DNA from: Alphaproteobacteria bacterium 16-39-46
GTDB lineage: Bacteria; Pseudomonadota; Alphaproteobacteria; 16-39-46
Direction: 5' to 3'
Length of the DNA stretch: 64,000 nucleotides
Assembly: GCA_002257235.1 (NCBI GenBank)
Contig: NCGZ01000002.1
Location: 56-64,055 of the forward strand
The translations under genes and the position numbers were made by a program. Shown here piece after piece: positions 45,984 through 48,655 of the stretch. The first letter of the stretch is position 1; each line of letters opens with the position of its first letter. Below the pieces are notes generated by a model that was not told where the DNA came from, did no database searches, and was given only the letters and a program-made list of their open reading frames with translations.

Positions 45984-46271
45984 ATGACGCGTGAAACTGT
46001 TCGGAAAATTTGGGTTATTGTTTTAGCTATCGTTGCTGTGGTGGCAGGTATTTTGTCATATAAGATATTCCATCTCCCTCAATTTGTTATGAGTTTTATT
46101 TCTTTTTTGTCAGCCCTTTTTTTTGTGAGATATAAAAATCCGAGATTTACAAAAAGGAAACAAGATATTTTGAAATATGGTTTCATTGTTCTGAGTGTTG
46201 TTTTCTTCTTATTAACGATCGGAAATTTTTTAGTATGGATGGGGATTATACAAGACATCCCACTCTTCTAA
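45984..46271 (+). CDS. Small integral membrane protein (95 aa, 3 predicted TM helices)
   Basis: Hydrophobic ORF with a plausible start and no overlap with other genes. No family assigned. Confidence 0.4.
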   Translation: MTRETVRKIWVIVLAIVAVVAGILSYKIFHLPQFVMSFISFLSALFFVRYKNPRFTKRKQDILKYGFIVLSVVFFLLTIGNFLVWMGIIQDIPLF

Positions 46272-46321: not shown

Positions 46322-47794
46322 CTAAAAAAGATCTTTCAACTCAACGGTGTGGTGAATAAGGTCTTCTGACCATGCGTTTTTTTTAAGTCCAGATGCAGAT
46401 ATTAAGGTCAGAAACAGTTGCTTTGGCTGGTTTAGGTTTTTTTCAAAAGCATCTATTTTATGGAGAAGGTTTCTTGCATAGGTTTTGTCTATGACAAAAG
46501 GGTGCGTCGTATACTTGATCTCACATAGAGAAATGGCGTTATCATCTCTGTCCAGAATTAAATCAATTTGAGCTCCATCTTCCTTTTGTTTGGGGTCACC
46601 TTTGTAGGACCAGTGGCTTACAAAACACCCAATACCATTAAGGCCAAGAGCTGTGATGATCTTATCCACATGCTTATAGCAAATTGTTTCAAAAGAATAC
46701 CCGGCCCAAGGATACCACTGGGGCGTTTTTAGAATTCGAGCCCAGTAATCAGCTCCTTTGGGAAGTTCTTTTCCTTGGACAAGGTCAGCAATCCATTTGA
46801 GATAAAAAAGAGAATATTCATCAATAACCTGATAGTAGTGGTCTCTTTTTTTGCGACCAAAGGGCAGAAAACGTTGAATGAACCCGGCGGCTTCAAGTTC
46901 ATAGAGACGATCTTTAAAGCGTCCTCCCGCATGTTTCCCAACCTTCTTAGAAAGTTCTGAAAAAGAGATACCATAATGTTTTTGAGCAATGATTTTAACG
47001 ATCTGTTGATTGAGTTCAGCCGATTCGAAGAGAGATCGAAAGAGTCGATTAAATTCGCCATAAAGGAGACCTTCTTTTTTAAAACAGAGGTCATTCACAT
47101 TTTGTGCGATGGACTTCGTAGAATCAAGCTGATTTAAGTAAAAGGGGATTCCCCCCATAACCATATAGAGTTCAAGAATTTGTTTTTCTGTGAGCTTTAT
47201 TTTTTTCTGGGCAAGGAAGTCCTTTGTCTCTGAGAGTGTGAAAGGTTCTAAAAGAAGAGGGCGCGTTACCCGATTATAAAGCCCCCCTTTTGCGTTAATA
47301 AGATGAGAGAGCATCCAAGAGGCGGCTGATCCACAGACAATTAATTTTACGTGGGGACATTTGCTCCACGCTGTATTCCAAAAGTAATCGAGACTTTGAA
47401 TGAGACCTGATTTACGGGTAGCAAGCCAGGGGAGTTCATCAAAAAAAAGGACTATTTTTTGACGGGGATACTTTTTGATTTCAAGAGTGAGAAGCTCAAA
47501 AGCCTCTCTCCAGCTTTTAGGAGTTTTTAAAGAAAGCTTGGGATAAAAAGTAGATTCAAAACTTTTGATAAAGTTAAGCAGTTGATCGTGAAGATTTCCA
47601 TCTTTGGTCCCTGTGCATTCAAAATAAACCCCTGCATGGGAAAGACACTGCTGAATGGTATAGGTTTTTCCAACACGTCTACGTCCATAAACAGCAACAA
47701 ACTCTGCTTGCTCTGAAGCCATAACTTTTTCAAGGAGACGTTGTTCTTTTTTTCGTCCAATAAGATTCATCTGAAAATCTCTCAATATTGCCAT
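46322..47794 (-). CDS. AAA-family ATPase of the Arch_ATPase + DUF234 type
   Basis: Walker A (GRRRVGKT) and Walker B (LFFDELPW). The C-terminal DUF234-like region is 490 aa. Confidence 0.75.
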   Translation of the reverse strand: MAILRDFQMNLIGRKKEQRLLEKVMASEQAEFVAVYGRRRVGKTYTIQQCLSHAGVYFECTGTKDGNLHDQLLNFIKSFESTFYPKLSLKTPKSWREAFELLTLEIKKYPRQKIVLFFDELPWLATRKSGLIQSLDYFWNTAWSKCPHVKLIVCGSAASWMLSHLINAKGGLYNRVTRPLLLEPFTLSETKDFLAQKKIKLTEKQILELYMVMGGIPFYLNQLDSTKSIAQNVNDLCFKKEGLLYGEFNRLFRSLFESAELNQQIVKIIAQKHYGISFSELSKKVGKHAGGRFKDRLYELEAAGFIQRFLPFGRKKRDHYYQVIDEYSLFYLKWIADLVQGKELPKGADYWARILKTPQWYPWAGYSFETICYKHVDKIITALGLNGIGCFVSHWSYKGDPKQKEDGAQIDLILDRDDNAISLCEIKYTTHPFVIDKTYARNLLHKIDAFEKNLNQPKQLFLTLISASGLKKNAWSEDLIHHTVELKDLF

Positions 47795-47803
47795 TCATGA
47801 GAT

Positions 47804-47935
47804 CATTATAAGCGGCAATAACTTTTCTGTAAAGGAGTTATTGCCGCTTATAAAGTGTGTATAAACGGCAATAACTTTAAAATGGAATATTTATTGCCGC
47901 TTATAGAAGGTCTATATACGGCAATAACTTTTGTT
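47804..47935. repeat. Five alternating-orientation copies of a 17-bp motif (TATAAGCGGCAATAACTT / AAGTTATTGCCGCTTATA) with 10- to 15-bp spacers
   Basis: Forward copies at about 47806, 47861 and 47916; reverse copies at about 47836 and 47890. The array lies between the pdxH 3' end and the ATPase 5' end. Confidence 0.7.
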
Positions 47936-47956: not shown

Positions 47957-48655
47957 TTAAGGTTGTAACCTTGTCAATTTCCAGGCACCATTGACAAGGT
48001 CATAACGAAGTCTTTGATGAATACGGGTCTTAACACCCACCCAAAACTCAACCCAGTCAAAAAGGAGATGATATCCATGCCATCCTCTTGGACGCGTCAT
48101 CTCAACATTCTCGTTTTCGATGAATTGGTATATTTGACGCGTGAGCTCTTCCTCATCTCTTAAAATGGCGCTTTGCTGAGAAATGATTGCGACGGCTTTA
48201 GCCTCTCGCGTTCTATCCTTAAAGTTTAAATCTGATTCAGAAGAGGATAACTTTTCAACCCGCCCTCCAAAACTAATTTGTTGAAGGGTTTCTCTCCAAT
48301 AGAGATTTCCCGCGGCAACGGGATGCGTTTTAATATTCTGACCTTTCTGACTGGTTTCACTTGTTCCAAACGTAATGCCGACTGGGGTTAATCCTTTCAA
48401 TAAAATAAAGCGACTTGAAGGGGTAAATCCATTCTGCGCATCGACAGTTGTCAGTGACATTGCATTTGGTTCTCGTATGTTCATTCTGTGGGCTTCTTTG
48501 AGCCAATGATCTAATAAAATAAGAGGATTATCAGGCGGCGACTCAAACAGTGTCATTACAAGAGTTGAATTACCTGTTAAGGTTTCTGGGTCACGCGTAC
48601 GACACGAAGTTGTGTTTTGAGATGCAAGTCGTTTTTTTTCGAGGGATGTCTCCAT
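47957..48655 (-). CDS. pdxH: Pyridoxamine 5'-phosphate oxidase
   Basis: FMN-binding fold with the C-terminal signature RMHDRLRYDL...W...RLQP. 232 aa. Confidence 0.85.
   Translation of the reverse strand: METSLEKKRLASQNTTSCRTRDPETLTGNSTLVMTLFESPPDNPLILLDHWLKEAHRMNIREPNAMSLTTVDAQNGFTPSSRFILLKGLTPVGITFGTSETSQKGQNIKTHPVAAGNLYWRETLQQISFGGRVEKLSSSESDLNFKDRTREAKAVAIISQQSAILRDEEELTRQIYQFIENENVEMTRPRGWHGYHLLFDWVEFWVGVKTRIHQRLRYDLVNGAWKLTRLQP

Follow-up and report, generated by a model that had tools for sequence, protein, structure and literature searches.

The window, by which we mean the whole stretch of 64,000 nucleotides analysed here, carries directly upstream of an AAA+ ATPase gene an array of alternating half-sites that is very probably a gene-specific protein-binding DNA element. 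On balance we favour, with rather less assurance, the reading of this array as a portable promoter-operator, bound by the ATPase itself for cooperative autorepression. Beyond what an earlier note on this DNA had proposed, the ATPase is most likely the regulator, with a promoter inside the array and an architecture found family-wide.

The 18-nt motif TATAWRCGGCAATAAMTT was found in five good copies (zero to two mismatches) of alternating orientation between positions 47807 and 47930. The earlier note had thus rightly described five alternating repeats, with a length of 17 bp that has to be corrected to 18. With a sixth, decayed copy the array counts six half-sites, listed below from the gene outwards with their centres counted from the ATG at 47770.

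47782 to 47799, - strand: half-site 0, decayed, CATGAATGGCAATATTGA on the - strand; gene-side arm of the proximal palindrome P1, read from the sequence
47807 to 47824, + strand: half-site 1, TATAAGCGGCAATAACTT; no mismatch; promoter-side arm of P1, centre at -45
47835 to 47852, - strand: half-site 2, TATAAGCGGCAATAACTC on the - strand; one mismatch; arm of P2, centre at -73
47860 to 47877, + strand: half-site 3, TATAAACGGCAATAACTT; one mismatch; arm of the middle palindrome P2, centre at -98
47888 to 47905, - strand: half-site 4, TATAAGCGGCAATAAATA on the - strand; two mismatches; inner arm of P3, centre at -126
47913 to 47930, + strand: half-site 5, TATATACGGCAATAACTT; two mismatches; outer arm of the distal palindrome P3, centre at -151

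Half-site 0 retains 10/18 matches and the GGCAAT core, with its centre at about -20, within the predicted 5′ leader. Read on the strand of the gene (-), the array consists of three palindromes of the form AAGTTATTGCCGYTTATA-N7-TATAAGCGGCAATAACTT, each of 43 bp, in which two TATA-N3-GGCAATAA half-sites flank a 7-bp spacer. The TATA boxes stand 11 bp apart across the dyad and the GGCAATAA boxes about 14.5 bp to either side of it. Centre-to-centre spacing follows a 28/25/28/25 bp rhythm and copies of the same orientation recur every 53 bp, about five helical turns; being 53 bp apart, the palindromes would therefore present themselves on the same helix face. By analogy with Orc1/Cdc6, which uses a winged helix and an initiator-specific motif, the bipartite half-site suggests two contacts per protomer.

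No further copy of the motif was detected in the 64-kb window at up to three mismatches. Chance would supply 0.03 matches over the same length, and five copies were reached in 0/100 shuffles. The array occupies the 186 bp that separate the ORF 46322-47794 (-) from a pdxH-like gene (47957-48655, -), filling the space before the ATPase gene as the earlier description had placed it, and the region is base-for-base identical in two assemblies of 16-39-46 (including GCA_002282095.1). A separate 17-nt inverted repeat, GTTGTAACCTTGTCAAT / ATTGACAAGGTCATAAC, lies at 47962-48006 in the last codons of the pdxH-like gene (88% complementary, 11-nt loop); since it is not followed by a T-run, it is not a canonical terminator.

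The gene and the signals in front of it are placed as follows.

46322 to 47770, - strand: ATPase gene, 482 aa; AAA+ module (Pfam ATPase_2), winged helix and PD-(D/E)XK-like C-terminal domain
47779 to 47783, - strand: Shine-Dalgarno-like GAGAG, 8 nt before the ATG at 47770, read from the sequence
47805 to 47810, - strand: predicted -10 hexamer TATAAT, overlapping the TATA end of half-site 1
47828 to 47833, - strand: predicted -35 hexamer TTTACA, within the 10 nt that separate half-sites 2 and 1; 11/12 consensus matches for the two hexamers together

The GenBank gene call, 490 aa from a start at 47794, probably begins 8 codons too early. The real start is most likely the ATG at 47770 (M9 of the ORF), because P0001, with 100% identity, is 482 aa long and the listed homologues mostly have about 480-490 aa, and because the alignment to the PDC-S27 profile begins at residue 10 and GAGAG precedes this ATG.

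The protein matches Pfam ATPase_2 (PF01637, E = 7.5e-17) and, over its full length, the PADLOC profile PDC-S27 (PDLC04984, E = 1.5e-175, residues 10-490 of the ORF), a likeness that concerns the gene and not the array. PDC-S27 is reported to combine an ATPase with a fused PD-(D/E)XK domain, a prediction still unvalidated, and to rank among the ten most prevalent prokaryotic defence systems, its copies in bacteria and archaea numbering thousands (PMC12988326). In an AlphaFold2 model built on a 22-sequence alignment (pLDDT 91.2, pTM 0.89), the AAA+ module is joined to a winged helix (about residues 251-315), with an alpha/beta domain at the C-terminus. In a Foldseek search of the PDB, P. abyssi PAB2304 (2qen) came first, then archaeal Orc1/Cdc6 on origin DNA (2qby; E = 2e-9), followed by eukaryotic ORC/Cdc6 and STAND proteins; by sequence, 2qen was the only match among PDB structures. 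The C-terminus contains IDLILDRDD...CEIKY, a D...E-x-K motif, and gives a weak, sub-threshold match to DUF234, a family that is also matched by homologues and has been placed in the PD-(D/E)XK superfamily (PMC3424549).

We observed that the array encloses a predicted promoter. Its 17-bp spacer is filled by half-site 1, and from its position transcription is predicted to start near 47796-47799. Taken alone, the window promoter is not significant (one sigma70-like site found against 1.7 expected) and owes its weight only to positional conservation. A search of the 200 nt upstream of the gene placed the best -35/17 bp/-10 match at the homologous position in 9/11 loci, Wolbachia phage WO included, and the remaining 2/11 carried there, as judged by eye, weaker versions of the promoter. 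The common layout has the -35 box in the spacer between palindromes and one half-site as the 17-bp promoter spacer, with its TATA end serving as the -10 box. The partner half-site covers the stretch from about +3 to about +20 past the predicted start, which is a classic repressor position, and the gene-proximal palindrome as a whole covers the -10 box and the predicted start. With the predicted promoter, sites thus overlap the core promoter and start as a self-operator should have them. Among the options first raised for the array, that of a multi-site operator gained support, since a conserved sigma70-type promoter is enclosed among the sites, whose conservation goes specifically with the ATPase gene.

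The association between array and gene was examined from both sides. Over all distinct loci with an ATPase 56-80% identical, the array was present in 13/13, as four to six alternating half-sites whose centres keep to about -19, -44, -72 and -97 relative to the ATG. The relatives' sites at about -72 and -97 match half-site 2, directly upstream of the -35 box, and half-site 3 of the window. At the position homologous to the decayed half-site 0 (about -19), an intact site was found in L003, L004, L010, L011, L012, L024, L025, L122 and L124. Seven of the loci had been found via the protein alone (the window, L003, L004, L010, L122, L123 and L124), and in 7/7 the array lay directly upstream of the gene. 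Genomic contexts of the 13 loci were unrelated (pdxH/PDH, UvrB/PriA, a transposase with TraG, a Paracaedimonas plasmid, a ROS/MucR gene, an integrase, a pyrophosphatase, Mg-chelatase, acetyl-CoA carboxylase and others), and no neighbouring gene was conserved across these 13 contexts. In the window the neighbours other than the pdxH-like gene, TamB and PDH E1, are housekeeping genes, and GC content is 0.377 over the ATPase gene against 0.42-0.43 on the flanks. In a search for an empty site that would define the cassette borders, the closest pdxH homologue was only 52% identical and not syntenic. In a distant relative of the source lineage, an ATPase-nuclease gene of a different family (AAA_14 + DUF4143) lies about 2 kb downstream of pdxH (L117:4460-5680).

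Starting from the DNA, we scanned 185,579 representative genomes, a set to which the source genome does not belong, with the pattern TTGCC-N3-TATA-N7-TATA-N3-GGCAA. Of 20 loci returned, 12 were unrelated palindromes without flanking TTA...TAA. The full motif was present at eight loci in eight different genomes, in 7/8 directly upstream of an ATPase homologue; the hosts of these seven were Paracaedimonas acanthamoebae (on a plasmid), a member of Midichloriaceae, one of Hyphomicrobiales, Berkiella, a gammaproteobacterium, a Myxococcales-labelled bin and an alphaproteobacterium. An array kept without the ATPase gene, a case the earlier note had considered, was represented among the scanned genomes only by a solo palindrome, GAGTTATTGCCGCTTATA-N7-TATAAGTGGCAATAACG, at L022:757-798 (Gammaproteobacteria MAG CBFGYM010000002.1). 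Its neighbours are a SnoaL-like ORF and a GNAT acetyltransferase gene, with no ATPase within 7 kb, and it may have been left behind by a cassette since lost. No second array or target site was detected elsewhere in the full-motif or fetched loci. Viral contigs scanned with the palindrome pattern gave two matches, both chance palindromes without an ATPase.

We then aligned 42 sites from ten loci. Positions 1-4 and 8-15 of the half-site carried 1.35-2.0 bits (T1 A2 T3 A4, G8 G9 C10 A11 A12 T13 A14 A15, plus T17), positions 5-7 and 16 between 0.7 and 1.0 bits, and spacers and flanks less than 0.45 bits; selection acts on the half-sites and leaves the spacers free to vary. The single motif was retained across Alphaproteobacteria, Gammaproteobacteria and the Myxococcales-labelled bin.

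More distant copies of the gene kept the arrangement with other half-sites. None of 80 metagenomic relatives (35-49% identity) carried the GGCAA core, and many had 4-6 alternating repeats of a motif of their own at the same location. At least four alternating copies were found in 31/82 non-redundant upstream regions (38%), so that the array may not be universal in the family; the same count was reached in 0/82 shuffled controls, in 2/66 regions downstream of the gene and in 0/62 regions far upstream. With a relaxed criterion of at least three copies, 54% of the distant relatives were included. The period between copies of the same orientation was 52-54 bp in 57/70 measurements, and the half-sites of the different clades share the theme TATA-N3-4-(G/C)GCC-AAWA (for example CAGCCATAAC, CGCCAAAA, TGGCCAAAT and CTGCGCTAA). 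A Legionellales copy, 56% identical, already uses AGCGATAA, the half-site of the L123 array, and L031 uses CAGCCATAA. That the half-site changes with the ATPase clade holds even among hosts of the same groups. The recognition region of the winged helix (recognition helix at about residues 283-294, wing at 298-315) differs in parallel with the motif, similar helices going with similar motifs, a correspondence that is confounded by phylogeny and suggestive only. In Wolbachia phage WO (MN180249.1, L111:2380-2488), where a 45%-identical ATPase lies between head-tail connector genes of the WO prophage, the gene is preceded by an array of four sites of its own, TATA..CCGCGGTAA, and by a promoter arranged in the same way (TTGATC-17-TATAAT). 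A homologue from the haloarchaeon Natronomonas (26% identical) had no comparable array upstream.

A simple model would thus make the ATPase cassette a self-contained, horizontally mobile single gene that brings its own promoter and operator array. The ATPase would bind the half-sites and oligomerise cooperatively along the array, and the bound proximal palindrome would occlude RNA polymerase. Such repression would keep a potentially toxic ATPase-nuclease low in any recipient host. The case for the ATPase as binder is built on the gene linkage, the change of motif with clade, the finding of no other conserved gene and the modelled winged helix: the trans-acting factor would have to travel and co-evolve with the cassette, and the ATPase is the only candidate. 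Cooperative or ATP-dependent binding is our proposal. Two features of the window weigh on the other side. Its gene-proximal half-site is decayed, weakening the very site that would be expected to repress, and the 25-28 bp between neighbouring half-site centres is unusual for simple dimeric repressors and could mean another mode of action.

Several known systems offer partial parallels. C proteins of restriction-modification systems are small dedicated HTH dimers acting on two adjacent sites that span about 35 bp. Their C-boxes share with the present array, as we read it, the tandem palindromic operators on the regulator's own promoter and the character of an autoregulatory module that is portable, does not depend on the host and serves a horizontally transferred defence gene of potential toxicity; they differ in that the presumed binder here is a 482-aa ATPase-nuclease effector, with 4-6 bipartite half-sites of 17-18 bp and a 53-bp period. 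DnaA, too, is an AAA+ ATPase that represses its own promoter via repeated DnaA boxes. The likeness is that of an AAA+ DNA-binding ATPase on repeats at its own promoter, as proposed here, whereas motif and DNA-binding domain are different (domain IV in DnaA, a putative winged helix here), the geometry of our array is strictly palindromic and a link to replication was not found. What would be new is a self-operator with a large AAA+-nuclease effector as the presumed repressor and an unusually conserved geometry. Our search of the literature on PDC-S27, PF01637, DUF234, Arch_ATPase and PAB2304, which was incomplete, returned no description of such repeats, and in what it covered on PDC-S27 we found no mention of an upstream repeat array or of DNA-sequence-specific binding.

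The same protein-DNA interaction could serve another end. As an assembly or loading platform, by analogy with Orc1/Cdc6 on origin recognition boxes or DnaA on DnaA boxes, the array would seed the growth of an ATP-dependent ATPase-nuclease oligomer, with regulation as a side effect; the oligomer could be stored inactive and released on infection, or used to remodel DNA. We consider this unlikely, if worth keeping in mind. Stated in full, and with the same low expectation on our part, PDC-S27 proteins would be bacterial Orc1/Cdc6-like sequence-specific DNA binders that assemble ATP-dependently at their own gene, on an array resembling ORBs. This array would act as the resting platform or sensor of a nuclease-armed AAA+ oligomer, whose release or remodelling on infection triggers defence, and array and protein would co-evolve in specificity within each clade. 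The fold speaks for it, as do the bipartite 17-18 bp half-sites alternating every 25-28 bp with a strict 52-54-bp period, the expansion to six sites in the window, L029 and L081, and the nuclease-like domain fused to the ATPase (PMC12988326).

The parallel with Orc1/Cdc6 on origin recognition boxes (2qby) extends from the AAA+ and winged-helix architecture to a gene adjoining its presumed sites and to long sites in opposite orientations. It ends where the ATPase is not an orthologue, having Pfam ATPase_2 and an extra nuclease-like domain, where the sites flank a promoter instead of an AT-rich unwinding element and show no shift of GC skew, and where the cassette is a single gene in bacterial chromosomes, plasmids and a phage. 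These differences count against a platform as well: the array lacks an unwinding element and a skew change, the loci contain no second array or target site, and the promoter lies inside the array with the proximal palindrome over the -10 box and start, a placement that regulation alone explains. A replication origin was rejected, the spacers measuring 7 and 10-16 nt, the cumulative GC skew rising steadily and the likeness to Orc1/Cdc6 being one of fold only.

A separate trans-acting regulator, for instance a transcription factor of the host or the product of a mobile-element gene located elsewhere, appears still less probable. Most operators are bound by dedicated small regulators, and defence systems often come with repressors of their own, as is reported for RptR. 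However, no gene is conserved beside the cassette in the 13 contexts, and the motif follows the ATPase clade even in hosts of the same groups, while a host factor would not predict the same motif across Alphaproteobacteria, Gammaproteobacteria and a Myxococcales-labelled bin. The earlier suggestion of an IHF site or partition-like centromere found no support: the half-site sequence changes with the ATPase clade, as it should not with a universal host factor, and no partition genes were found nearby. ParR/parC does share with the present array the repeats around the promoter of the adjacent operon and, as proposed here, autorepression, but parC consists of short direct repeats read by a ribbon-helix-helix adaptor together with a partition NTPase, whereas our repeats alternate and stand without partition genes. 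As a parS/parC centromere, the array was likewise rejected on its neighbours (pdxH, TamB, PDH E1) and on the ATPase, which is an AAA+ ATPase_2 and not ParA.

That the region acts as structured RNA, through hairpins of the 5′ leader (for attenuation or stability) or by terminating the upstream gene, is very improbable. Strong folding, for which the earlier note had suggested looking, was indeed obtained (-61.4 kcal/mol, z = -9.8 against shuffles), but any inverted repeat folds strongly and the RNA reading itself failed. The two palindrome arms agreed at the variable positions 5-7 in 27/57 cases, against 29.0 ± 2.9 with shuffled partners, giving no sign of arm compensation. The best Rfam match reached 31 bits against a gathering score of 55.8, with weak matches symmetric on both strands. 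Moreover, with the conserved promoter internal to the array, most copies would go untranscribed, and since the upstream genes are divergent in several loci, termination cannot be a general role.

Repetitive or mobile DNA (REP/BIME, a MITE-like element, a recombination site or a cassette end) is just as hard to credit. REPs do alternate in orientation within BIMEs, the ATPase gene is clearly mobile, and orphan arrays exist in the L022 palindrome and the downstream arrays of L086 and L034; against this, the array occurs at one locus per genome with no extra copy in 64 kb, it stands on one side of the gene only in 64/66 loci, and the downstream array of L086 is a duplication remnant. The REP or MITE option, including a generic 17-mer present hundreds of times, is not borne out by one locus per genome among the 185,579 representative genomes and by the want of extra copies in the window or the fetched loci, the source genome itself being covered by the 64-kb window alone.

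Individual element classes failed on structure. A REP/BIME unit does not fit, TATAAGCGGCAATAACTT being not self-complementary and only pairs of units being complementary; ends of a MITE or insertion sequence do not fit repeats on one side of the gene without copies elsewhere. A CRISPR array, already discounted at first sight and rightly so, would have direct repeats of 21-48 bp with spacers of similar length, in contrast to alternating repeats with spacers of 7 and 10 nt.

The conserved, co-varying array predicts that AAA+-nuclease proteins of this family read DNA sequence. An operator bound by the ATPase would explain the safe expression of a single-gene cassette once it has been transferred to very different hosts, here mostly lineages associated with amoebae or insects. 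The arrays of the different clades offer natural specificity variants for binding, reporter and swap work, and the array provides a simple DNA signature for annotating the family, which also aids the correction of start codons.

Some observations concern the history of the arrays. Six sites are found not only in the window but also in L029 and L081. Upstream of the L081 gene (about 200 nt before it) we noted three nearly perfect 52-bp units, which suggests that arrays grow by tandem duplication of a palindrome-plus-spacer unit; L024 and L029, where left and right arms differ systematically, point in the same direction. A second array of the locus's own motif was present downstream of the ATPase gene at L086:2964-3050 and L034:1810-1940. 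In L086 it is a remnant of a tandem duplication of the cassette, because it includes ATGGAAAAA, the first codons of a truncated gene copy, and then an early stop; in L034 no gene follows the array. On the 3′ side of the ATPase gene in the window, a convergent 95-aa ORF (45984-46271, +) may not be a real gene. It was rejected as a conserved partner, with no Pfam or NCBIfam match and no relation to the small ORF downstream of the Paracaedimonas copy. Culturable carriers include Emticicia oligotrophica DSM 17448 (pEMTOL01), Butyrivibrio fibrisolvens and Segatella hominis. Finally, the hosts of the closest homologues are mostly intracellular or protist- or insect-associated (Paracaedimonas, Berkiella, Midichloriaceae, Chlamydiota, Legionellales and Wolbachia phage), a host range consistent with gene exchange inside shared eukaryotic hosts.
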